Shown here one piece after another: positions 25,850 through 38,569 of a stretch of 64,000 nucleotides of DNA. Source of the stretch: Actinomycetales bacterium (GTDB lineage: Bacteria; Actinomycetota; Actinomycetes; JAJZTN01). Under the pieces are notes generated by a model. It had not been told where the DNA came from and searched no databases. It saw only the letters and a program-made list of their open reading frames with translations. The stretch is taken from NCBI GenBank assembly GCA_051960855.1, contig JBQCDV010000091.1, positions 56,347 through 120,346 of the forward strand, written 5' to 3'. Each line of letters opens with the position of its first letter. The stretch's first letter is position 1. Made by a program: the position numbers and the translations under genes.

Positions 25850-27111
25850 AAGGGCACGACCAGGCTCGGCAGCCAGAGCGCGAGCACGCACGCCACGAGG
25901 GTGACCGGCACGCTGAGCGCCCCGAGTGCGTGGAAGGTCGAGGCCCGCACCTGCTCGTCGCGCTGGCCCAGCACCCGCCGCCAGAGCAGCACCGCGAGCG
26001 AGCCGACGTAGGTGAGGTTCGGGCCGACGTTGACCCCGATGAGCGCGGCCAGGACAGCGGGGACAGCGGGGGCGCCAGCCGGCGCGACCAGGGGGAGCAG
26101 CAGGAGGATCGCCGGCAGGTTGTTGAGCAGGTTCGAGGCGACCGCGGCGACCACGGCGATCCCGAGTAGCGCGGGCAGGGAGGCGCCGGCCGGCACGAGG
26201 TGCCCGAGGAGCCGGCCGAGCGGGCCGGAGGCGACGGCCGCGACGACGACCCCCAGCGCGAGGACGAACACGGCAAAGCCGACGTTGGCCGACCGGATCG
26301 CCGCGCGGGTGTCCAGCCGCCGGCGACGCACGGTGTGCACCGCCAGGACGACCGCGCCCGCGGCGGCCACCCAGACCGGGGCGACCCCGAGCGGCTCTCC
26401 GGCGATGAAACCCGCGAGCACACACACCACGACGATCAGCGCTGCGCGCGGGTAGGGCCGCGGCGGACGCTGCGACCGCACGGGGACTGCGCGCAGGTCC
26501 GTCCGGAACCAGGTGCGCAGCACCGCCCACTCGACGACGACGGCGACCAGCCACGGCAGCGCCATTCGGGCCGTGAATCCTCTGAAGGACAGGCCGGTCG
26601 CGGCGACGGCGAGCAGGTTGGTGAGGTTCGAGACCGGCAGCAGCAGCGAGGCCGAGTTCGCCAGGTGCGCGCAGGCGTAGGTGTGCGGACGGGAGGGGAC
26701 GCGCACCTCGCGGGCGGCGAGCAGCACGACCGGCGTGAGCAGGATGACCGTGGCGTCGAGGCTGAGCGCCGCCGTCGTCACGGCTGCCGCAACGACGGTG
26801 CGGGCGAAGAGCACGTGCGCTCCCGAACGGCGTCCGCCACCGTTGCTGCGTGGTGCGAGCCGCTGGCCGACGGCGTCGAAGAGGCCTTCCTGCTCGCAGA
26901 GCTCGGCCAGCACGAGGACGGCAACGAGGAAGCCGACGACGGGCAGCAGACTCCTGACCTCGGCTCCGGCGCGCGGCAGGGACACGCCGCCGGTGGCGAT
27001 GACGAGCACCGCCGCCGGCACGGCCGCCACCGCCTCGGACAGGCCGCGCGGTCGCAGCACGGCGAAGACGAGGACGGCCACGAGGGCGAGCAGCGCGACA
27101 CCCGCCGTCAC
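25846..27111 (-). CDS. ArsB/NhaD-superfamily anion permease (arsenical pump-like membrane protein)
   Basis: 421-aa polytopic membrane protein with ArsB-like repeats; GTGA overlap with the yaaA stop. Confidence 0.75.
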   Translation of the reverse strand: MTAGVALLALVAVLVFAVLRPRGLSEAVAAVPAAVLVIATGGVSLPRAGAEVRSLLPVVGFLVAVLVLAELCEQEGLFDAVGQRLAPRSNGGGRRSGAHVLFARTVVAAAVTTAALSLDATVILLTPVVLLAAREVRVPSRPHTYACAHLANSASLLLPVSNLTNLLAVAATGLSFRGFTARMALPWLVAVVVEWAVLRTWFRTDLRAVPVRSQRPPRPYPRAALIVVVCVLAGFIAGEPLGVAPVWVAAAGAVVLAVHTVRRRRLDTRAAIRSANVGFAVFVLALGVVVAAVASGPLGRLLGHLVPAGASLPALLGIAVVAAVASNLLNNLPAILLLLPLVAPAGAPAVPAVLAALIGVNVGPNLTYVGSLAVLLWRRVLGQRDEQVRASTFHALGALSVPVTLVACVLALWLPSLVVPF

Positions 27112-27896
27112 GCCGGCTCCACCAGCTCCAACCGCCAGGGCTGCCCCGGGCGCGGCGGCTGGTGGAGGTCGGCGGCCCAGCGTCCGGTCGCCGCGACGAG
27201 CTCGGCCAGCTCCTCGGGGCGTCGCGGGGGAGACGCCGAGCGGAGCAGCTCACGGGCCAGCAGCCCCCGGCCGTGCTTGGCCATGTGACTGACGACCTGC
27301 CGCCGCCCGGCCTGCTCGCGCACCACGTGCACCTGCACCCAGCGTCCGGCGAGGTCGGGAGGGGCCGGCCAGGCGGCGACGTAGTCGCTGGAGCGGCAGT
27401 CGACGACGAGGCCCCGGGCGGTCGGCGGTCGCAGGGCGTCTGCCAAGGGGGCGCGCCACAGCCGCGGCAGCGGTCCGAGGCCGGGCAGGGTTGCCGACAT
27501 CGACAGCCGGTAGGGCGGGACCCGGTCGGCCGGGCGCAGCGCGCCCCACAGCCCGCTGACGATGACGAGCGACGAGGTGGCACGCCGCCGACTGCCCGAG
27601 GTCCAGGTGGCCGGGTCGAGGGCGTCGTAGAGGACGCCGGTGTAGACCTCGATCGCGGGCAGCGCGGGGGCTTCGAGCAGGCGCGTGTCGCGGGCGACCT
27701 CGTCGAGCTGCGTGGGTCCCAGCCCGAGGGCTGCCGCCGCCGCGGACGGATCGGTGCGGCACAGCTCCACGAGGGTCTCGAGCACCCGGGCGCGGGTCTC
27801 GGTGAGCTCGGGGAAGGACAGGCTGTCCAGCCGCACGGGCGCCCGGCGGGAGGCGGCGCTCGTCTTGCCCTCGCTGGGGGGCAGCAGGATCAGCAT
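27108..27896 (-). CDS. yaaA: peroxide stress protein YaaA (UPF0246/DUF328)
   Basis: MLILLPPSEGK N-terminus and YaaA core; the remainder of the 639-aa ORF is antisense to the RNB gene. Confidence 0.85.
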   Translation of the reverse strand: MLILLPPSEGKTSAASRRAPVRLDSLSFPELTETRARVLETLVELCRTDPSAAAAALGLGPTQLDEVARDTRLLEAPALPAIEVYTGVLYDALDPATWTSGSRRRATSSLVIVSGLWGALRPADRVPPYRLSMSATLPGLGPLPRLWRAPLADALRPPTARGLVVDCRSSDYVAAWPAPPDLAGRWVQVHVVREQAGRRQVVSHMAKHGRGLLARELLRSASPPRRPEELAELVAATGRWAADLHQPPRPGQPWRLELVEPA

Positions 27897-27989
27897 CGAG
27901 GGGCCGCCGCCGAGGGGAGGGGGCTCGCGGGCGGCACGAGTGGGAAGCGTAACGAGCGCGAATCCTCGGCGCAGCCCTAGGCTTCCCGA

Positions 27990-29411
27990 GTGGCGGCCCG
28001 GCACGTGAGACTGACGGAGACGGACGGCCGCGTGCTCCGAGAGGGCTTCGCCGCGATCCGGCGCGAGCTGGAGGTCCCGGAGACGTTCCCACCGGAGGTG
28101 CTGGATGCGGCCCGCGCCGCAGCCGAGCGACCCGTTGATGACGGCGACCGGACGGACCTGCGAGCCACGGCGTTCTTCACGCTCGACCCGCCTGGGTCGA
28201 TGGACCTGGACCAGGCGATGTTCCTCGAGCGCACGGGGACGGGCTTCGTCGTTCGGTACGCCATCGCCGATGTCGCCTCCTTCGTCGCGACCGACGGCCC
28301 GGTGGACGCCGAGGCGCGACGCCGGGGCGAGACCCTGTACAGCCCGGACACGCGCACGCCGCTGCATCCACCCGTGCTGTCGGAGGGCGCGGCGAGCCTG
28401 CTGCCCGACCAGGACCGGCGCGCTGTCGTCTGGACGCTGACCCTCGACGGCGACGGAGAGCTCACCGGCACCCACCTCGAGCGGGCTCTGGTGCGGTCCT
28501 GCCGGCGGCTCGACTACGCCGGCATGGCCGGGCTGCTCGCCGGCGGCGACGAGCAGGCCCAGCTGCTTGCCGAGATCGGCCGGCTGCGGGTGCAGCGCGG
28601 GGTCGAGCGAGGTGCGGTCGACCTGCCGATACCGGAGCAGGAGGTGGAGGCGGTCGGCGGCGGCTACCGCCTGACCTACCGGGAGGTGTCGGCGGCCGAC
28701 CGCTGGAACGCCCAGATCTCCCTGCTCACCGGTATGGCCGCCGCCCGGATCATGCTCGACGGCCGGATCGGGATCCTGCGCACGCTGCCGCCCGCGCCGG
28801 AGTCGGCCGAGACCAGGCTGCGCGCGACGGCCGCGAGCCTGGGTGTGGACTGGCCCGCCGAGGAGAGCTTCGCGGCCCTGGTGCCCGGTCTCGACCCCAG
28901 CCGCCCCGCGGTGGCGGCTCTGGTGCAGGAGGCGACGGTGCTGCTGCGCGGCGCCGGCTACACCGCCTTCGACGGCGAGCTGCCGAAGCAGCCCGAGCAC
29001 GCTGCGGTCGCCGCTCCCTACAGCCACGTCACGGCCCCACTGCGCCGCCTGGTGGACCGGTTTGCCACCGAGGTGGTCCTCGCCCTCGTCGCCGGCCGCG
29101 ACGTCGACCCGGATATCCGCGCCGCCCTGCCGGAGCTGCCCGCTCTGATGTCGGCGGCCGACGAGCGGGCCGGGCGGCTCGAGCGCGCCTGCCTCGACCT
29201 CGTCGAGGCGACCGTGCTGCAGTCGCGGGTGGGGGAGGAGTTTGCGGGCTCCGTCGTCGACATCCGCGAGGGCGGCGGGACCGTGCTGCTGCGCGACGAG
29301 GCGGTCCGCGCCCCCGTGACCGGGGAGGGCCTGCGGCTCGGCGAGCAGGTGCGGGTGCGCCTGACCGAGGCCGATCCCGAACGCCGCAGCGTGCGCTTCT
29401 CGTGTGCCTGA
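27990..29411 (+). CDS. RNB-domain ribonuclease (RNase II/R family, no S1/CSD domains)
   Basis: TLDPPGSMDLDQA resembles RNB motif I (D-x5-D-x-D-D-A) with the last Asp replaced by Gln. Confidence 0.7.
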   Translation: MAARHVRLTETDGRVLREGFAAIRRELEVPETFPPEVLDAARAAAERPVDDGDRTDLRATAFFTLDPPGSMDLDQAMFLERTGTGFVVRYAIADVASFVATDGPVDAEARRRGETLYSPDTRTPLHPPVLSEGAASLLPDQDRRAVVWTLTLDGDGELTGTHLERALVRSCRRLDYAGMAGLLAGGDEQAQLLAEIGRLRVQRGVERGAVDLPIPEQEVEAVGGGYRLTYREVSAADRWNAQISLLTGMAAARIMLDGRIGILRTLPPAPESAETRLRATAASLGVDWPAEESFAALVPGLDPSRPAVAALVQEATVLLRGAGYTAFDGELPKQPEHAAVAAPYSHVTAPLRRLVDRFATEVVLALVAGRDVDPDIRAALPELPALMSAADERAGRLERACLDLVEATVLQSRVGEEFAGSVVDIREGGGTVLLRDEAVRAPVTGEGLRLGEQVRVRLTEADPERRSVRFSCA

Positions 29412-30255: not shown

Positions 30256-30702
30256 TCAGCCGTCGATGCGCATCTCGACCGGCGTGGGCAGCTCGACGGT
30301 CCGTCCGACGGTGCACAGCCGGTCGTGGGACTCGGCGACCGCCTTGGGAAGGACGGCGCGGGCAGCGTCGCCGGCCTCGCCGTCGGGGAACGTCACGCGG
30401 AAGGTGACAGCGACGTTCGTGAGGTGGTTGCCCTCATCGTCGCGGACCTTGTCCGCCTCGACCGTGACCGAGAAGCCGGTCGGCTCCGCGCGACGGGTCG
30501 TGAGGATGTCGACGTCGACGGCGGTGCAGCCACCGATGGCGGCGAGCAGCAGCTCGACGGGGGTGAAGACGTCGCTGTCACCGGTGCCCATGCTGACGGT
30601 GCCGCCTCGCCGGTTGTGGGCGAGGAAGGAGCCGGCGCCGGTGCGCTCGACGGTGACGCTGCGCTTGGTGGTGGCGGGCTGAGGGTTCGTGATGTCCGTC
30701 AT
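30256..30702 (-). CDS. OsmC/Ohr family peroxiredoxin-like protein
   Basis: OsmC fold with two Cys (GGCTAVD, LCTVG); internal ATG (MTDITNP) chosen. Confidence 0.8.
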   Translation of the reverse strand: MTDITNPQPATTKRSVTVERTGAGSFLAHNRRGGTVSMGTGDSDVFTPVELLLAAIGGCTAVDVDILTTRRAEPTGFSVTVEADKVRDDEGNHLTNVAVTFRVTFPDGEAGDAARAVLPKAVAESHDRLCTVGRTVELPTPVEMRIDG

Positions 30703-30715
30703 GCCGCGAACGCTG

Positions 30716-31525
30716 TCAGACAGTCGACGGCGGGTCCAGTGCCTCCGGCCGCTGCCACGACGGCTTGTGCTCGTACACATCGCGGTAGTAGTCGAGCAGC
30801 TCGAGCTGTCCCGCCGCCGCCTGGTCGATGATGACGACGACGTGCGGATGGTGCTGGAGGACGGAGCCGGGCCAGCGCGCGGAGACGGGGCCTTCGATGA
30901 TGGCGGCCACCGCAGCCGCCTTCGCCTCGCCTTGGGCGACCAGCACGATGCGGCGAGCCTCGAGGATGGTCGCGAGGCCTTGGGTCAGGCAGTGCGTGGG
31001 GACCTCGGCGACTGAGGCGAAGAAGCGGGCGTTGTCAGCTCGGGTGCTGGGGGCGAGGGTCTTCAGGCGCGTCCGGGAGCCGAAGGACGAGGTCGGCTCG
31101 TTGAAGCCGATGTGGCCGTTGGCGCCGAGGCCCAGGATCTGCACGTCGATGCCCCCGGCCGCGGCGATCCGTCCCTCGAAGTCGGCGCAGGCCGCAGCGA
31201 GGTCCTCGGCTCGGCCATCGGGCACGTGGACGAGCGCGGGGTCCAGGCGCAGCGGCTCGACGACCTCTCGCCGGATCACGGAGGCGTAGCTCTGCGGGTG
31301 GCCGGCGGCGATCCCGACGTACTCGTCCAGCGCGAAGGCCGGGCAGCGTGAGAGGTCGAGCTGGCCAGCCTCGACGAGCCTGCGCAGCTCTTGGTAGGTG
31401 CCCACAGGCGACGACCCCGTGGCGAGTCCGAGCACCGCCTGCGGGTGCTGTCGCACGACGGCGGCCACGTGCGCAGCCGAGACGCGGGCGACGTCGGCGG
31501 GGTCGGGGAGGACGACAACTTCCAC
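30716..31525 (-). CDS. nagB: glucosamine-6-phosphate deaminase
   Basis: NagB motifs (LGLATGSSP, LGLGANGHIGFNEP); GTG start. Confidence 0.9.
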   Translation of the reverse strand: MEVVVLPDPADVARVSAAHVAAVVRQHPQAVLGLATGSSPVGTYQELRRLVEAGQLDLSRCPAFALDEYVGIAAGHPQSYASVIRREVVEPLRLDPALVHVPDGRAEDLAAACADFEGRIAAAGGIDVQILGLGANGHIGFNEPTSSFGSRTRLKTLAPSTRADNARFFASVAEVPTHCLTQGLATILEARRIVLVAQGEAKAAAVAAIIEGPVSARWPGSVLQHHPHVVVIIDQAAAGQLELLDYYRDVYEHKPSWQRPEALDPPSTV

Positions 31526-31534
31526 GATGGCGCC

Positions 31535-32473
31535 TCAGTCCGGGGTGGTGGTCTGCGGTCTGGTGCGCGCTGCCGCGAGAGCTGGCGCCGCGGCGAGCGC
31601 GGCTCCGACGACGGCGGCGGGCAGGTCGGGAGGCAGCAGCTGGATGCGGGCAGGCAGCTGCAGGCCGGTGAGGAAGTGCGACTGCGACGACCAGTCGACG
31701 AGGAGGTCGCGGACCCGCGCGAGCAGCTGGTCGCCGAGCCGGCTGAGGCCGCCGCCGATCACGACGGTGCCGACGTCCACGGTCAGGATGAGCAGGCGCG
31801 CCGCGGCGGCGACCCCGTGGGCGAGCTGGGCCGAGATCTGCTGCACCAGCGCGCTTCCGCTGTCGCCGCTCGCGAGCAGGTCGGACAGGGGCGTGCGGTC
31901 CTCACCGGCGAGAGCGCGGCCGAGGCCCGATCCCGACGCCATCGTCTCGAGGCAGCCGACCTGGCCGCAGGAGCACACCTCGCCAGCTGGGTCGACGGGC
32001 ACGTGCCCGACCTCTCCGGCCGCCCCGCGGCTGCCTCGCAGGAGGTGCCCGTCGATGACGAGGCCGGCCGCCATGCCGGTGCCGAGGTTGAGATAGGCCA
32101 TGGAGCCGCTGAGCTCCATCAGCTGGTAGGCGCCGAGCGCGGCGGCGTTGACGTCGTTCTCGACGGTGACCGCCACTCCGAGCCGTCGCTGCAGCTCGCC
32201 GCCCAGGTCCAGCTCGCTCACGCCGAGGTTGACGGCGTGGGAGACCAGGCGGGTGCGCGGGTCCACCACCCCCGGGACGCCGACACCGATCGACTCGAAC
32301 TGCCCGGGACGCAGTCCCGTGCGCGTGGACAGCTCCCAGATGCTGTCGACCGCGGCCTGGATCACGCCCTCCGGGCCGAAGCCCGTCGGCAGCCGCAGGC
32401 CCGTCACCACTGTGCCGTCCTCGACAGCCACCGCCTCGGTCTTGGTGCCGCCGATGTCGATGCCCAGCTTCAT
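31535..32473 (-). CDS. ROK-family sugar kinase (N-acetylglucosamine kinase-like)
   Basis: MKLGIDIGGTK ATP motif and CSCGQVGCLE zinc motif. Confidence 0.85.
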   Translation of the reverse strand: MKLGIDIGGTKTEAVAVEDGTVVTGLRLPTGFGPEGVIQAAVDSIWELSTRTGLRPGQFESIGVGVPGVVDPRTRLVSHAVNLGVSELDLGGELQRRLGVAVTVENDVNAAALGAYQLMELSGSMAYLNLGTGMAAGLVIDGHLLRGSRGAAGEVGHVPVDPAGEVCSCGQVGCLETMASGSGLGRALAGEDRTPLSDLLASGDSGSALVQQISAQLAHGVAAAARLLILTVDVGTVVIGGGLSRLGDQLLARVRDLLVDWSSQSHFLTGLQLPARIQLLPPDLPAAVVGAALAAAPALAAARTRPQTTTPD

Positions 32474-33963
32474 CGGATGGCACCGTCGAGAAGGGTGAGC
32501 AGCGCCTCGCCGACCAGACGCGACGCACCGAAGGTCGCGATGTCGACGACGTCTCCTCCTCCTCGTGCTGTGCCGGGCCACCCCATGTCGACGACGAGCA
32601 CGGACGGGTTCGCCTGCCGCAGACGTGCGATGAGGTCGCGTGCGAAGGGCCGCCGGTGCAGGTCTTTGCCGACGACCAGCACCGGTCCCTCCAGCGGTCC
32701 TACCTCGGCGCCCTCACCCTCGCGGACGACCAGGACCCGCCCGGGAGTGAAGGGCCGGGTCACGTTCGACTGCGGCTGGCGTTCGGCGGCGGGGAAGGGA
32801 CCCCACGGAGCTGAGCCGACGGCAATGTTCGCAGCCGTCTCAACACGGATCACCGTGAAGCCGGACGTCGCCGTGCGGCACCAGGGCTGGATGTCGGTGC
32901 GGAGGTCGAAGGACGCGACGATGCGGCGCAGCTCCGCGGCATCGTCAGCCGGACGGTCGGGCTCACCCCGCTCTCGCTGGTCACGCAGCTCCGCGCCGAG
33001 CCGCTGGACCCGCGCTGCGGCCTCCGCCACCCGCTCCGCGGTCAGGTCTCCCCGGGCGACGGCCTGGGCGATCTCGCGCTCGATGTCGCAGAGGTCCTGC
33101 TCGGTCGTGTCCGTGCCGATGCACAGCAGGTCGCAGCCGGCGGCCAGAGCCTGGACGGCGGCAGCCGGGATGCCGAGGCTGCCGCTGGCGCCGGCCATGT
33201 CGAGTGCGTCGGACACCACGACGCCCTGGAAGCCCAGTTCCTTGCGCAGGAGAGTGGAGATGACCTGGGGACTCAGTGTCGCCGGGCGGTCCGGGTCGAG
33301 GGCGGTGACGACGATGTGCGAGGTCATGACCGCTTTCACCCCGGCATCCACGGCCGCCCGGAACGGCGCCAGCTCGCGCTGGTGCAGGAGCTCGAGGCTG
33401 ACGTCGATGACAGGAAGGGCCACGTGCGAGTCCTGGCCGGTGTCACCGTGTCCCGGGAAGTGCTTGACGGTCGCGGCCACGCCAGTCGACTGGAGTCCGC
33501 GCACCCAGGCGACGCCGTGTCGTGCCACGAGGTCGGGATCGGCTCCGAAGCTCCGGACGCCGATCACGGGATTGTCGGGGTTGGAGTTGGTGTCGATGTC
33601 GGGGGCGAAGTCGAGGTTGCAGCCTGCTCGCCGCAGCTCCCAGCCGACCCGACGGGCCACGGTCTCCGTGCGTGCCACGTCGTCGATCCGTCCGAGGACG
33701 GCGTTCCCCGGATAGGGGGAACCGGTCGCGTAGTGCAGGCGGGTGACGTCGCCACCTTCCTCGTCGATGGCGACGAGGGCCTCGGGGTGAGCGCTGAAGA
33801 TGCCGGTCGTCAGGTCCTTGACCTGGTCAGCGTCGACGATGTTGGAGCCAAAGAGGCACACCCCGGCCAGCCCATGCCGCAACCGCTCGTCGAGCCAGCT
33901 CGGTAGCCGGGTGCCAGTGAAGCCCGGCAACAGCGTGCCGCGCGCGACCGCCTCGATACCCAC
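32470..33963 (-). CDS. GH3 beta-N-acetylhexosaminidase (NagZ-like)
   Basis: KHFPGHGDTGQDSH NagZ signature. Confidence 0.9.
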   Translation of the reverse strand: MGIEAVARGTLLPGFTGTRLPSWLDERLRHGLAGVCLFGSNIVDADQVKDLTTGIFSAHPEALVAIDEEGGDVTRLHYATGSPYPGNAVLGRIDDVARTETVARRVGWELRRAGCNLDFAPDIDTNSNPDNPVIGVRSFGADPDLVARHGVAWVRGLQSTGVAATVKHFPGHGDTGQDSHVALPVIDVSLELLHQRELAPFRAAVDAGVKAVMTSHIVVTALDPDRPATLSPQVISTLLRKELGFQGVVVSDALDMAGASGSLGIPAAAVQALAAGCDLLCIGTDTTEQDLCDIEREIAQAVARGDLTAERVAEAAARVQRLGAELRDQRERGEPDRPADDAAELRRIVASFDLRTDIQPWCRTATSGFTVIRVETAANIAVGSAPWGPFPAAERQPQSNVTRPFTPGRVLVVREGEGAEVGPLEGPVLVVGKDLHRRPFARDLIARLRQANPSVLVVDMGWPGTARGGGDVVDIATFGASRLVGEALLTLLDGAIR

Positions 33964-33985
33964 GGTGCTCCTCTCCCCGCCGTTA

Positions 33986-34008
33986 TTTCGTTAGTAGACC
34001 TTACAAAC
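33986..34008. promoter_or_regulatory. operator-like motif TTTCGTTAGT-N6-TTACAAAC (site 1), followed by a CCCCCGCGGGGG palindrome
   Basis: Seen in the divergent nag / ROK-regulator intergenic region. Confidence 0.35.
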
Positions 34009-34134
34009 CCCCGCGGGGGCAAGAGGTCCAGGCGAGGCTCCAGGAGGCAGGCGGCACCGGTAACAGCGATGGGGAACGGGAATCGGCGCACGAGGGGAGT
34101 CTTCGGGCGCGCCGAAAATTAGGTCTTGACGAGA

Positions 34135-34162
34135 GTTTGTAAGCGATGTTCACTAACGAAAC
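34135..34162. promoter_or_regulatory. inverted second copy of the operator-like motif (GTTTGTAA-N9-ACTAACGAAA), about 30 bp upstream of the ROK regulator start
   Basis: Reverse complement matches site 1 at both half-sites. Confidence 0.35.
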
Positions 34163-34192
34163 CTCGAGAGCTCCGAGTGGAAGGGAGGGGTC

Positions 34193-35347
34193 ATGCGCAG
34201 ACCGTCGGCAATGGCGGCGGCCGCCGTCCCGGGACAGCGCTCCCTGCGGCTGACGGCCAAGGCGCTGCCAACCGACAGCCGGCAGCACAACCGCTCGCTG
34301 CTGCTGCAGGAGCTGTTCCACAACGGTGCGATGAGCCGCGCCGACCTCGCCCGCCGGTCCGGCCTCACCCCCGTCACGGTGTCCAACCTCGTCAAGGAGC
34401 TGTTGCGCGCCGGCCTGGTCGAGGACCAGGGAGCCACCGCTGCAGGGGGAGTCGGCAAGCCTGCGACGCTGATCGCCCTGCGGCGGCAGGCCTTCCAGAT
34501 CCTGTCGGTCGACCTGTCCGGCGACGACGTCTTCGTCGGGGCGGTGGTGGACCTGGAAGGCAACGTGGTCCGGCGCCATTCGGTGACGTCGAAGGGTCGC
34601 ACCGGGCGGCGCGCAGTCGACCTCGTGACCAGGGTCGTCGGCGCGCTCGTCGAGTTCGCGACGGCCCCCATCCTCGGCATCGGCATCGCGACACCCGGCA
34701 TCGTCGACAACCGCGGACGCGTGCTGTCTGCGCCCAACCTCAAGTGGACCGATGTGAATCTGGCGGGCCTCCTCGAGGAGCGGTTCGAGCTCCCGGTGCG
34801 CGTGGAGAACGACGCAGACGCCGAGGCCCTGGCGGCTCGAAGCTTCGGCCGCTCCAGCGGCAACAGCCTGATGGTCGTCACCATCAAGCACGGCGTGGGA
34901 GCCGGCCTCGTGCTCGGGGACATGCTCATCCACGGAGACGACTTCGCTGCCGGCGAGATCGGGCACGTGGTCGTCGACGAGGCCGGGGAGACCTGCTCGT
35001 GCGGCCGCCGCGGCTGCCTCGAGGTGTCGCTGGCCGTGCCGTCGCTGCGCCGCCGGTTCGCAGGGCGGTCGGAGTCGGAGCGCGAGGAGGTGCTCGTTGA
35101 CGCCGGACGCGCCCTCGGTGCCGCGCTGGCACCGATCACCAGCGCGCTCAACCTCAACGAGGTCATCCTGTCCGGCCCCGCCGAGCTGCTCGACGGTCCA
35201 CTGCGCGACAGCGCCCTCGACACCATCCGTGCGAAGACTCTGGCCGCCGTCAGCAGCGGCCTCCAGCTCAGCGTCGACACCAGCGGTGACCTCGCCCTTC
35301 TCGGTGCTGCCGTCCTCGTGCTGCACGCCGAGCTCGGCGTGGCCTGA
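34193..35347 (+). CDS. ROK-family transcriptional repressor (NagC/XylR-like)
   Basis: N-terminal HTH (RADLARRSGLTPVTVSNLVKEL) plus ROK domain with CSCGRRGCLE. Confidence 0.85.
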   Translation: MRRPSAMAAAAVPGQRSLRLTAKALPTDSRQHNRSLLLQELFHNGAMSRADLARRSGLTPVTVSNLVKELLRAGLVEDQGATAAGGVGKPATLIALRRQAFQILSVDLSGDDVFVGAVVDLEGNVVRRHSVTSKGRTGRRAVDLVTRVVGALVEFATAPILGIGIATPGIVDNRGRVLSAPNLKWTDVNLAGLLEERFELPVRVENDADAEALAARSFGRSSGNSLMVVTIKHGVGAGLVLGDMLIHGDDFAAGEIGHVVVDEAGETCSCGRRGCLEVSLAVPSLRRRFAGRSESEREEVLVDAGRALGAALAPITSALNLNEVILSGPAELLDGPLRDSALDTIRAKTLAAVSSGLQLSVDTSGDLALLGAAVLVLHAELGVA

Positions 35348-35387: not shown

Positions 35388-36749
35388 ATGAAGAGGTCTC
35401 GATTTGTGGCAGTCGGCGCCGCCGGACTCGCCATCGGCCTGTCGCTCGCCGCCTGCTCCAGCAGCGGCACCGGTGCCGGCAACGTCGCTGACAAGTCAGG
35501 CAGCGCCGCGACGGGTGGGGCATCGGGCACCGGGGGATCGGGCGCGCTGCCCGGGGCCGGCCAGACGATCACCGTCTGGGAGATGAACGGCGACCTCACG
35601 CCGGCGACCCTCGACGCCATCAACGCGGAGTTCACCAAGAAGACCGGGGCGAAGGTGAACGTGCAGCTGCAGGACTGGTCGGGGATCACGACCAAGCTGA
35701 CGACGGCTCTGGCCACGTCCAACCCGCCGGACGTCGTCGACGTCGGCAACACCCAGGTGCCCAGCTATGCGGCGACCGGCGGTCTGGCCGACCTGACGAG
35801 TCACAAGGACGAGCTGGCCCAGGGGCGCACGTGGCTCGGGGGACTCGTGGACCCGGCCACCGTCGACGGCAAGCTCTACGGCGTCCCGTCCTTCGCGGGC
35901 ACGCGGGCCGTCATCTACAACAAGAAGATGTGGGCTGACGCGGGCATCACCAGTAGCCCGACCACGTACGAGGAGCTGACGGCCGATCTCGACAAGATCA
36001 AGGCCAAGAACACGGCGAGCGACTTCTCCGCCTTCTACCTGCCAGGGAAGTACTGGTACGCGGGGCTGCAGTGGGTCTGGGACGCCGGTGGCGACCTTGC
36101 CACCCAGTCCAACGGGTCGTGGAAGGCCGGCCTGTCCAGCCCTGAGGCCCAGCAGGGGCTGAAGGACTTCAAGGAGTTCCAGAACACCTACTCCACGCCG
36201 GCGTCACGCACGCTCAACACCGACAAGCCCGACCAGGACCAGGTCTTCGCCGACGGTAAGACGAGCGCGATCCTCGGCAACGGGTGGGAGATCGGGGTCA
36301 TCCAGAAGAACAACCCGAAGCTCACGAACGACGACCTGGGAACGTTCGCGTTCCCGGGGAAGTCAGGCAAGGCCCAGCCGGTGCTGCTCGGAGGCTCCGA
36401 CTGGAGCGTGCCCGTCAAGAGCGCCCACCAGGACCTCGCGCTGGAGTGGCTGAAGATTGCGGCCGGGCCGCAGATCCAGGACACGCTGGTCTTCGGCAAG
36501 GAGGGCTGGATCCCGAACACCCTCGAGGGAGTCAAGGCGGCCGCAAACGGCCAGCTGACCGACATCCAGAAGGGCTATTTCACGGCGGCGCAAACGTCGA
36601 AGTCCACGCCGGCCGCGGCCAACTGGTCCACCATCGAAGGCGACAACAGCATCACCGAGTTCTTCTCGTCGATCGCCTCAGGGGCGCAGACGCCGGAGGC
36701 GGCCGCGAAGGCTTTCGATGCGCACATCGAATCGGTCCTGAACAAGTAG
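35388..36749 (+). CDS. ABC transporter sugar-binding lipoprotein (NgcE-like, GlcNAc/chitobiose)
   Basis: Lipobox LSLAAC; family 1 SBP; AAGGAG RBS; ORF-track N-terminal 97 aa rejected. Confidence 0.9.
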   Translation: MKRSRFVAVGAAGLAIGLSLAACSSSGTGAGNVADKSGSAATGGASGTGGSGALPGAGQTITVWEMNGDLTPATLDAINAEFTKKTGAKVNVQLQDWSGITTKLTTALATSNPPDVVDVGNTQVPSYAATGGLADLTSHKDELAQGRTWLGGLVDPATVDGKLYGVPSFAGTRAVIYNKKMWADAGITSSPTTYEELTADLDKIKAKNTASDFSAFYLPGKYWYAGLQWVWDAGGDLATQSNGSWKAGLSSPEAQQGLKDFKEFQNTYSTPASRTLNTDKPDQDQVFADGKTSAILGNGWEIGVIQKNNPKLTNDDLGTFAFPGKSGKAQPVLLGGSDWSVPVKSAHQDLALEWLKIAAGPQIQDTLVFGKEGWIPNTLEGVKAAANGQLTDIQKGYFTAAQTSKSTPAAANWSTIEGDNSITEFFSSIASGAQTPEAAAKAFDAHIESVLNK

Positions 36750-36773
36750 CGGCGAGAGGTCGGTCCTAGCGCG

Positions 36774-37745
36774 ATGGCTGCCGTCGAGTCGACGGGTGTG
36801 GGCGGGACGCTTGCGGCGAAACCGCGGCGTCCCGGCCGTGCCAAGCCCTTCCGCCGGTCGAGCCCCTGGATGCCAGTGGCCCTGCTGGCCCCGGCGATGA
36901 CGGTGGTCATCGCGCTGATCCTCGTGCCGATCCTGTTTCTGGTCTTCACCTCGTTCACCGACTTCGACCAGAAGTCGTTGTTCACCGGGACGTTCCAGTT
37001 CGTCGGGATCTCGCAGTACACCGCGGTCTTCACCGACTCCGGCTTCTGGCTCGCCTTCGCACGGACGGTCGGCTTCACGACGGCGATGGTGGCCGGCAGC
37101 GTCGTTCTGGGGATGGGGGTCGCCCAGCTGCTGGCGATGCTCGGCCGAGGCATGCGATACGTCGTCACCGTCGTGCTCATCCTGGCGTGGGCGATGCCGA
37201 ACGTGGCCTCGTCCCTGGTCTGGAACTGGCTCTTCCAGCCCGGCTACGGAGTCGCCAACTGGCTGCTGACCTCCACGCACTTGTTCGGCGACCTGACCGA
37301 CGTCAACTGGGGCGAGCGCGCGCCGCTGGCCTATCTGGCCATCTGGATGCTCATCGTCTGGCAGGCCGTGCCCTTCATCGCTCTCACCCTCTACGCCGCT
37401 CAGACGCAGGTGCCGACCGAGTACTTCGAGGCGGCCCGCCTGGACGGTGCCGGGGAGTGGCTGATCTACCGACGGCTGACCGTGCCCTTCCTCAAGCCGA
37501 CGCTGCTGCTGATGACGATCCTGTCGATCATCTGGGACTTCAACGTCTTCAACCAGATCTGGCTCGTCTCCCAGGGCGGCCCGCACGACGCGACCTCCAC
37601 GCTGGGGGTCTGGACCTACAAGACCGCCTTCGTCGGCTTCCACCTCGGCCAGGGCGCCGCGATCGCCGTCGTCACGCTGCTCCTGCTCCTCGGCCTGACG
37701 GCGTTCTACATCCGCAGTCTCGTGCGCAGCGGGGAGGACCTGTGA
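36774..37745 (+). CDS. sugar ABC transporter permease (MalF-type)
   Basis: 6 TM segments with an EAA loop. Confidence 0.9.
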   Translation: MAAVESTGVGGTLAAKPRRPGRAKPFRRSSPWMPVALLAPAMTVVIALILVPILFLVFTSFTDFDQKSLFTGTFQFVGISQYTAVFTDSGFWLAFARTVGFTTAMVAGSVVLGMGVAQLLAMLGRGMRYVVTVVLILAWAMPNVASSLVWNWLFQPGYGVANWLLTSTHLFGDLTDVNWGERAPLAYLAIWMLIVWQAVPFIALTLYAAQTQVPTEYFEAARLDGAGEWLIYRRLTVPFLKPTLLLMTILSIIWDFNVFNQIWLVSQGGPHDATSTLGVWTYKTAFVGFHLGQGAAIAVVTLLLLLGLTAFYIRSLVRSGEDL

Positions 37746-38569
37746 CGCCTTCGCTCCGGCGCCGTGTCGCGAACGCCATCGCCGTGGTGTTCGTCGTGGT
37801 CTGGATCTTCCCGGTGTACTGGATGGTCAACACCGCGTTCAAGCCGCGGTCGGAGGTCATGACGGCGACGCCGCTCTTCCTGCCGCGTCACCCCACCTGG
37901 TCGAACTTCGTCAACGCCGTCACGCAGACCAACTTCCTGATCGACCTGCGCAACAGTGCGATCGTCGTGCTCGGGGCCATGGTCGCCTCCATCGCCGTCG
38001 GGCTGTTCGCAGCCGCGGCCCTCACACGGTTCCGCTTCCGCGGACGGCGCTCGATCATGGTCGGCATCCTGGCGGTGCAGATGCTTCCGGCGACCGCCCT
38101 GCTGATCCCGACGTTCCTCGTCTTCAACCGACTGGGGCTGCTCGGCACCTACGCCGGGCTGATCCTCGCCTACGTGGCGGCCGTGCTGCCGTTCTCGATC
38201 TGGGTCATGCGGGGGTTCTTCCTCCTCATCCCCGTCGAGCTCGAGGAGGCGGCGATGGTCGACGGAGCCGGCAGCTGGCGGATCCTGCGCAGCGTCCTCG
38301 TGCCCCTCGTCATGCCCGGCGTGGTGGCGACGAGCATCTTCGCCTTCATCGCCGCCTGGAACGACTACCTGACCGCCTACACCTTCATGAAGGATCAGAC
38401 GATGTACACCCTGCCGGTCTGGCTGGCGTCGTTCTCGACGAAGACGGGGACCGATGTGGGAGCGCAGATGGCGGGCTCGGTCGTGTTCTCGCTACCGGTC
38501 GTCGTCTTCTTCCTGCTCATCCAGCGAAAACTGGTCGCGGGGATGTCAGCCGGCGCCGTGAAGGGCTGA
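37742..38569 (+). CDS. sugar ABC transporter permease (MalG-type)
   Basis: GTG start overlapping the upstream stop (GTGA); EAA motif. Confidence 0.9.
   Translation: MTPSLRRRVANAIAVVFVVVWIFPVYWMVNTAFKPRSEVMTATPLFLPRHPTWSNFVNAVTQTNFLIDLRNSAIVVLGAMVASIAVGLFAAAALTRFRFRGRRSIMVGILAVQMLPATALLIPTFLVFNRLGLLGTYAGLILAYVAAVLPFSIWVMRGFFLLIPVELEEAAMVDGAGSWRILRSVLVPLVMPGVVATSIFAFIAAWNDYLTAYTFMKDQTMYTLPVWLASFSTKTGTDVGAQMAGSVVFSLPVVVFFLLIQRKLVAGMSAGAVKG

Follow-up and report, generated by a model that had tools for sequence, protein, structure and literature searches.

Two predicted operators of a NagR-like ROK regulator at a divergent amino-sugar locus of an uncultured actinomycete

NagR is a ROK-family repressor that controls the genes for N-acetylglucosamine (GlcNAc), lacto-N-biose and human milk oligosaccharides in bifidobacteria (Khoroshkin 2016, PMC4746261; Arzamasov 2022, PMC9599254; James 2018, cited there). 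In early-diverged bifidobacteria, nagR-hex1-nagK-nagB-nagA and chbABC are under NagR control, and the operators follow motif I, for example ATAGTAAgGAAagTgaACTAa upstream of chbABC (PMC9599254). Motif II reads TTTGTTAA-N5-TTAACAAA. Binding to the B. infantis sites has been confirmed by electrophoretic mobility shift assay, and bifidobacterial operators range from -29 to -464 relative to the start codon (PMC9599254). Specific binding that is released by GlcNAc or GlcNAc-6-phosphate (GlcNAc-6-P) has been shown only for Bifidobacterium NagR. Here we describe a 64-kb stretch of Actinomycetales DNA (the window) in which a 229-bp intergenic region, 33964-34192, separates two divergent sets of genes: an operon headed by a GH3 hexosaminidase-like gene on one side, and a ROK regulator gene (34193-35347) with a sugar transporter on the other. 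Two 21-bp sites in this region, O1 and O2, are likely to be operators of the adjacent regulator, which would be a NagR relative outside the bifidobacteria that represses both divergent promoters.

The two sites were found as copies of a two-word motif, and each copy contains one predicted operator:
33986-34008, plus strand: motif copy 1, TTTCGTTAGT-N5-TTACAAAC, an exact match; full string TTTCGTTAGTAGACCTTACAAAC
34135-34161, minus strand: motif copy 2, TTTCGTTAGT-N9-TTACAAAC, an exact match; full string TTTCGTTAGTGAACATCGCTTACAAAC
33987-34007, minus strand: predicted operator O1, a 21-bp quasi-palindrome by the GH3 operon; TTTGTAAGGTCTACTAACGAA read toward GH3, TTCGTTAGTAGACCTTACAAA on the plus strand
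34136-34156, plus strand: predicted operator O2, a 21-bp quasi-palindrome by the regulator gene; TTTGTAAGCGATGTTCACTAA

An earlier sequence-only reading had reported two inverted motif copies in the divergent region, and an exact pattern search bears this out: only these two copies occur in the 64 kb, and none of 100 dinucleotide-preserving shuffles contained a match. Neither motif word recurs exactly elsewhere in the window, and each copy is oriented toward its own downstream gene. The spacers are 5 and 9 nt, not 6 to 9 nt as had been stated. We rejected a bipartite motif with a flexible spacer of 5 or 9 nt, as first described, because a fixed 21-bp frame accounts for both copies. The functional unit is probably this fixed quasi-palindrome, TTnGTnA-N7-TnACnAA. 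The spacers differ by 4 nt because the shared block ACTAACGAAA carries two half-site-like words, cACTAA and TAACGAA, that lie 4 nt apart; O1 takes the outer word and O2 the inner one. The two operators are 149 bp apart, centre to centre, and O2 is much like the B. infantis nagB operator as published, ATTGTTAtgAAacTTcACtAA.

We built a symmetric weight matrix from 71 published NagR (ROK) operators only (PMC9599254 Table S3) and scanned the window with it. O2 was the best match at 18.5 bits and O1 the second at 15.9 bits, and the next match reached 3.5 bits. Both scores fall inside the range of the training sites (9.2-25.2 bits). O1 scored 16.1 bits with a matrix of motif II versus 15.9 bits with the combined matrix. 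A score of 15.9 bits was attained by none of 300 first-order Markov windows and by none of 5000 shuffles of the intergenic region, which is the AT-richer sequence. Both O1 and O2 are thus non-random and highly similar to the 21-bp NagR palindrome. In the reverse direction, a matrix of Micrococcales sites run on B. longum loci recovered the published nagR/nagB and nagK operators; this result is partly circular, since the Micrococcales sites were chosen with the bifidobacterial matrix and the B. longum loci were fetched by one operator.

The regulator encoded next to O2 has the features of a ROK-family transcriptional regulator. It matches PF00480 at 139.3 bits against a cut-off of 22.9, has HTH_24/MarR matches at residues 36-77 that place a winged helix-turn-helix (HTH) at its N terminus, and contains GEIGH...CSCGRRGCLE, which agrees with the zinc motif GH...CxCGxxGCxE and is invariant in the ortholog alignment (A1). 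The proteins most similar to it, at 69% and then 50-59% identity, come from Leifsonia, Galbitalea, Humibacter, Gryllotalpicola, Cellulomonas, Xylanimonas and others. For comparison with NagR, we used the exact nagR operator to pull B. longum contigs out of gut metagenomes and took NagR from one of them (L128). Over 329 aa, this protein and the window regulator share 35% identity (E 7e-59). When scored with a profile built from 25 Micrococcales orthologs, 80 orthologs reached 450-636 bits and Bifidobacterium NagR 290-300 bits. With the same profile, the ROK regulator neighbouring nagR in B. longum scored 150-168 bits, E. coli Mlc 152, E. coli NagC 148, a Frigoribacterium paralog (L022) 137 and ROK kinases at most 127. 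The linker between the HTH and ROK parts also reads G-K in both the window regulator and NagR, versus GGRR/GRP in NagC/Mlc. The protein fell below the NagC equivalog model NF047937 (132.9 versus 650) and the Mlc equivalog model NF049930 (143.6 versus 530). The window regulator is therefore a winged-HTH ROK protein that resembles NagR more than it does any other ROK regulator tested, and by these scores NagR is its nearest characterised relative among the few paralogs compared. The neighbouring B. longum regulator is itself a second winged-HTH ROK protein, encoded about 0.7 kb downstream of nagR (L128 7030-8307, with an equivalent position in other loci); it is 31% identical to the window regulator, and its gene is separated from nagR by a stretch that holds the published nagK operator.

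We collected 80 orthologous loci in a one-genome-per-species scan, with the alignment of 25 orthologs as the query. They come from Microbacteriaceae, Cellulomonas, Promicromonospora, Nocardioides and others. In nearly all of them the regulator, a binding protein, two permeases, a ROK kinase and NagB point the same way, joined in some loci by GH3, and the divergent layout of the window is also present in Galbitalea (L001) and Frigoribacterium (L010, L020, L022). Upstream of the regulator, almost every locus has a TTGAC/TTGCG box, a few bases, and then TTnGT(T/A)(C/A)G..G.T.TACTAACAAAC. When the NagR matrix was run on the 969 kb of these loci, 85 sites scored at least 9 bits, and 82 of them adjoin the start of a regulator, GH3, kinase or binding-protein gene. 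The closest relative, L176, whose regulator is 69% identical, has kept O1, as have L001, L010, L020 and L022, and O2 is conserved in the closest relatives; L176 keeps TTTGTTAGTAGACCTCACAAA and CTTGAC-N6-TTTGTAAGCCAGGTTTACTAA. In an alignment of six divergent-type intergenic regions (A2, 47% mean column identity), the invariant columns cluster at the two sites and the -35 boxes. The sites are thus conserved in orthologous loci. Between O1 and O2, the Frigoribacterium loci L010, L020 and L022 share an extra block, ATTTCGGGTATTGACC...GTGTTTC.TG..CGTAAACTCGCC (A2 columns about 150-260), which is absent from the window and may be a further promoter or binding site.

Copies of the site are not confined to the region next to the regulator start. 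Many Microbacterium, Herbiconiux and related loci have a second NagR-like site, TTTGTAAAnnnnCnnnnCAAA (9-19 bits), 48-49 bp upstream of the start-proximal operator, at these positions:
L015 5853, L032 5907, L041 5876, L048 5882, L050 5115
L052 5847, L064 5882, L068 5919, L079 5888, L080 5843

NagR-like sites also stand before the binding-protein gene in L004 (2489-2509), where the gene order is binding protein-permeases-regulator, and in L057 (6272-6292 and 6309-6329), where they are additional to the regulator site. These positions indicate that the site goes with the start of the operon and not with the regulator gene as such. Because the second upstream copies and those in L004 and L057 lie outside the start-proximal core promoter, they favour a transcription-factor site over a promoter element.

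Both predicted operators fall within what appear to be core promoters. We placed the elements by positional homology with the relatives, and the assignments and their overlap with the operators are to be read accordingly as putative:
34126-34131, plus strand: -35-like TTGACG of the regulator/transporter promoter, conserved in A2 and positioned as in relatives
34149-34154, plus strand: candidate -10 TTCACT, inside O2, 17 nt after TTGACG
near 34162, plus strand: putative transcription start, with a leader of about 31 nt, Shine-Dalgarno sequence GGAAGGGAGG, then ATG
34022 to 34017, minus strand: -35-like TTGCCC of the GH3 operon promoter (plus strand GGGCAA)
33998 to 33993, minus strand: candidate -10 TCTACT, inside O1, 18 nt after TTGCCC
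near 33986, minus strand: putative transcription start, with a leader of about 23 nt, Shine-Dalgarno sequence GGAGAGGAG, then GTG

The geometry of the GH3 promoter equals that of leaderless relatives, and GCAAG at its -35 position is conserved in L176, L001, L010, L020 and L022. In 68 of the 80 loci, the element reads ...GTnnGnnnGnTnTACTAACAAAC, and the regulator's in-frame ATG or GTG comes immediately after it, exactly 4 nt past ACTAAC. In these loci, which belong to L002-L080, the right arm that abuts the start codon is ACTAACAAAC; the region concerned is about 25 nt upstream of the regulator start (for example L027 5931-5955). An in-frame start further upstream is usually lacking in them, as is space for a Shine-Dalgarno sequence. 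An alignment of 67 distinct sequences, anchored on ACTAAC so that the ACTAAC columns are uninformative, has a -35-like TTGAC/TTGCG box at -36 to -31 and is nearly invariant at -23/-22 (GT), -15 (G), -13 (T) and -4 to -1 (AAAC). Such spacing suggests that the mRNA is leaderless and that the element covers its core promoter. The window, with its leaders of 23 and 31 nt, is an exception to the leaderless form. Across the loci, the element keeps its place between the conserved -35-like box and the start codon or presumed transcription start. In Microbacteriaceae (for example L027 5927-5953, L080, L034) and Nocardioides (L017, L036), it extends to a 27-bp palindrome, GTTTGTTnGTA-N5-TACnAACAAAC. Two NagR-like frames of 21 bp, offset by 4 bp, overlap within this palindrome, and each scores positively with the matrix; the palindrome may represent two binding registers or one long footprint.

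The genes around the region are the following:
32470-33963, minus strand: GH3 beta-N-acetylhexosaminidase-like (PRK05337, 204.9 bits, just below the cut-off of 207)
31535-32581, minus strand: ROK sugar kinase
30716-31525, minus strand: NagB
about 30256-30702, minus strand: OsmC-like
30256-33963, minus strand: the catabolic operon as a whole (GH3, ROK kinase, NagB, OsmC-like)
34193-35347, plus strand: NagR-like regulator with an N-terminal winged HTH and a ROK part, the first gene of the transporter operon
35388-36749, plus strand: lipoprotein solute-binding protein
36774-37745 and 37742-38569, plus strand: permeases
35388-38569, plus strand: the ATP-binding cassette (ABC) sugar transporter as a whole

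The sequence-only reading had called the two operons as nagZ (GH3), ROK kinase, nagB and osmC on one side and ROK regulator with transporter on the other, and these calls hold. Its label of NgcEFG-like for the transporter needs correcting: this is a CUT1-type sugar ABC system, and its solute-binding protein (SBP_bac_1) is no NgcE equivalog, as it reaches 35.9 bits where the model TIGR03851 demands 399.65. The gene for the OsmC-like peroxiredoxin begins 14 nt after nagB and seems to be a member of the nag operon. Further downstream, an open reading frame with a YaaA peroxide-stress domain occupies 27108-29027 on the minus strand.

In the Bifidobacteriaceae, a NagR-type regulon is defined by monophyly of the regulator, genomic context and a similar site motif. 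The window locus agrees with the definition on two of these three: both sites resemble the NagR palindrome, and the context comprises GH3, a ROK kinase, NagB and an ABC transporter, the same genes as in the 80 loci. Membership of the regulator in the NagR clade is suggestive but unproven.

We propose that a dimer of the regulator would bind each operator through its winged HTH. Each operator lies between the -35-like box and the gene start and would cover the presumed -10 and start region, so that the bound regulator could block RNA polymerase at both divergent promoters. Operators at core promoters are in the position expected for simple repression. Through O2, the regulator would control its own synthesis together with that of the ABC importer, and O1 would give it control over the genes for the GH3 hexosaminidase, ROK kinase, NagB and OsmC-like protein. 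Imported GlcNAc-containing oligosaccharides would then be cleaved, and GlcNAc and/or GlcNAc-6-P would fill the sugar pocket of the ROK protein and release the repressor. What we infer is that the regulator physically binds the sites, that it represses and does not activate, where transcription starts and what the effector is. That the sites serve the adjacent ROK repressor had been suggested by the sequence-only reading, and the suggestion gains support from the NagR matrix, from conservation in most of the 80 loci while the flanks vary, and from the lack of a dre site for DasR.

Several observations weigh against this proposal. The operator assignment in an organism known from a metagenome-assembled genome rests on sequence, and orthology of the regulator to NagR is suggestive, not proven, at only 35% identity and with few paralogs compared. 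A strict sigma-70 consensus scan found no promoter in the region, and neither candidate -10 conforms to TANNNT. The identical 10-nt block ACTAACGAAA is longer than one 21-bp frame needs. With the bifidobacterial matrix, 17 of the 80 loci score below 9 bits, mostly Promicromonospora and Isoptericola, with the right arm kept. The hexosaminidase of the window belongs to GH3, in contrast to the GH20 Hex1 of bifidobacteria, and nagA was found neither in the nag operon nor among the flanking open reading frames scanned.

Twelve Promicromonospora, Isoptericola and Krasilnikoviella loci (L006, L014, L016, L018, L021, L023, L025, L029, L043, L045, L054, L066) keep the right arm CTACTAACAAAC directly before the ATG. 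In the same loci, which score below 9 bits, the left arm has diverged to TCTGTTAAGGAGGT and GGACA replaces TTGAC at -35. Operator or promoter may thus have changed specifically in this lineage.

The conserved blocks could in principle be only core-promoter and leaderless-start elements, kept for RNA polymerase or ribosomes with no dedicated regulator. Part of the conservation could be promoter constraint, considering the arm at the start codon in 68 of the 80 loci and the -35-like box at its fixed distance, and in Cellulomonas-type sites an AAAC tail falls outside the 21-bp frame. However, the element is palindromic and matches the operators of a characterised regulator, which sit anywhere from -29 to -464; its sequence fits neither TANNNT nor TATAAT; additional copies are present 48-49 bp upstream of the core promoter, as well as before binding-protein genes; and the window sites are conserved despite leaders of 23-31 nt. 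We consider a pure promoter element very unlikely. The adjacent regulator might also act on the same sites by another mechanism, as a dual regulator or activator, or by looping the DNA between O1 and O2 as a tetramer. NagC and Mlc are examples of ROK regulators that oligomerise, and NagC loops DNA at E. coli nagE-nagB. The two operators 149 bp apart in a divergent region would suit such a loop, and NagC is annotated as a dual regulator. Conserved phasing of a loop is unsupported, however: the divergent loci, including the window, are spaced 89, 125, 125, 126, 149 and 174 bp, and the related loci share no common helical phase. Most relatives have a single site, and the sites appear to lie on core promoters. 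We regard these other mechanisms as unlikely.

A different regulator encoded elsewhere in the genome, either of the GntR/DasR type or another ROK paralog, could bind the sites instead. Only 64 kb of the genome is visible, related genomes have ROK paralogs (L022), and O1 contains GGTCTAC, which resembles half a dre site. Yet the GGTCT spacer varies in relatives (GGTGT, GCTTT, GGTTT), and the dre palindrome ACTGGTCTAGACCACT, in the Streptomyces consensus, has no match in the whole window, the search covering 16-mers with up to 3 mismatches. The motif is therefore distinct from dre, as the sequence-only reading had held. In addition, the site accompanies the regulator gene in at least 10 genera, whatever lies upstream, and it matches the operators of the nearest characterised homolog. 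A regulator from elsewhere is the least probable of the alternatives, and repression of both promoters by the adjacent NagR-like protein is the reading that we favour.

Two palindromes in the region need separate mention. The sequence-only reading had noted a perfect palindrome abutting the first site:
34008-34019, no strand: CCCCCGCGGGGG palindrome, spacer DNA between O1 and the -35 box

This palindrome is present and overlaps the last C of motif copy 1. The window contains 42 perfect 12-nt palindromes, 9 of them GC-only, versus 44.8 +/- 6.8 expected, and the closest relative has the non-palindromic AGCGTCCCCAGG at the same position. We rejected it as a functional element (a terminator or a second operator) because its frequency is that expected by chance, relatives do not conserve it and both presumed starts lie downstream of it. 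A second palindrome, CTCGAGAGCTCCGAG (34163-34177), lies in the presumed 5' leader of the regulator. A scan marked it as a weak hairpin of terminator type on the minus strand, probably of no significance. An Rfam search of the leader and intergenic region gave no match at E<=1.

If the proposal is right, it provides a testable operator map for an uncultured actinomycete, comprising a pair of 21-bp sites, the promoters that go with them and a likely effector. It would also extend the NagR regulon model, which in the literature found so far is bifidobacterial, to many soil- and plant-associated Actinomycetales, and the motif could be used directly for annotating GlcNAc/chitobiose regulons in Actinomycetales genomes. 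A literature search, with supplements and RegPrecise outside its range, found no description of this regulon in Micrococcales and none of these motif strings. Tentatively, the NagR operator-regulator pair may have arisen outside the bifidobacteria's own history, as no invention of theirs but an ancient module of Microbacteriaceae, Cellulomonadaceae, Promicromonosporaceae, Nocardioides and their relatives. Its common form would be fused to a leaderless start, with two overlapping 21-bp registers in a 27-bp palindrome, and the window would be a derived, leadered version with one register per site. We see this as possible but doubtful. If true, one short element would serve as operator, core promoter and translation start at once. 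Should the family include the Streptomyces ROK regulators beside ngcEFG, the motif could point to their operators. The view of how ROK repressors work is unchanged.

How does the locus compare with other control systems for amino sugars? DasR, a GntR/HutC-family protein, controls GlcNAc and chitobiose uptake and catabolism in Actinobacteria and thus has the same physiological role, but its regulator family and motif are different. E. coli NagC and Mlc share the protein architecture of the window regulator, and their operators are likewise A/T-rich quasi-palindromes with a short spacer, set in a divergent nag region. TT/AA at +/-5,6, the sole invariant positions of NagC/Mlc sites, are kept in bifidobacterial motif II and in one arm of each window site. 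In contrast to NagC/Mlc, the window system has an ABC transporter and a kinase instead of a phosphotransferase system. The regulator-transporter-hydrolase-kinase content of the csnR-K operon is similar to that of the window locus. CsnR of S. lividans, RokL6 of S. coelicolor and Rok7B7/SCO6008 beside ngcEFG are also ROK regulators that are autoregulated through a palindrome in their own promoter, and the RokL6 site overlaps divergent promoters. The operators of RokL6 (CTATCAGG-N7-CCTGATAG) and CsnR (AGGAAACTTTCCT) are unrelated and contain GC, and a paper of 2016 still had no specific site on record for Rok7B7.

The differences from Bifidobacterium NagR are those of host, operon and promoter form. 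The window comes from a high-GC soil or environmental Actinomycetales genome, not a bifidobacterium, and its operon lacks nagA and has an OsmC-like gene in addition. Most Micrococcales relatives fuse the operator to a leaderless start, often with two overlapping 21-bp frames, an arrangement not reported for bifidobacteria in the texts consulted. The two systems have in common a winged-HTH ROK regulator, a 21-bp palindromic operator with TTnGT...ACnAA arms, and operators on promoter elements, a placement that is putative in the window. They also share a local regulon of GlcNAc kinase, NagB, hexosaminidase and an oligosaccharide ABC transporter, as in the early-diverged species. Taken together, these comparisons suggest that the locus is most likely a new instance of a known amino-sugar switch of the NagR type.

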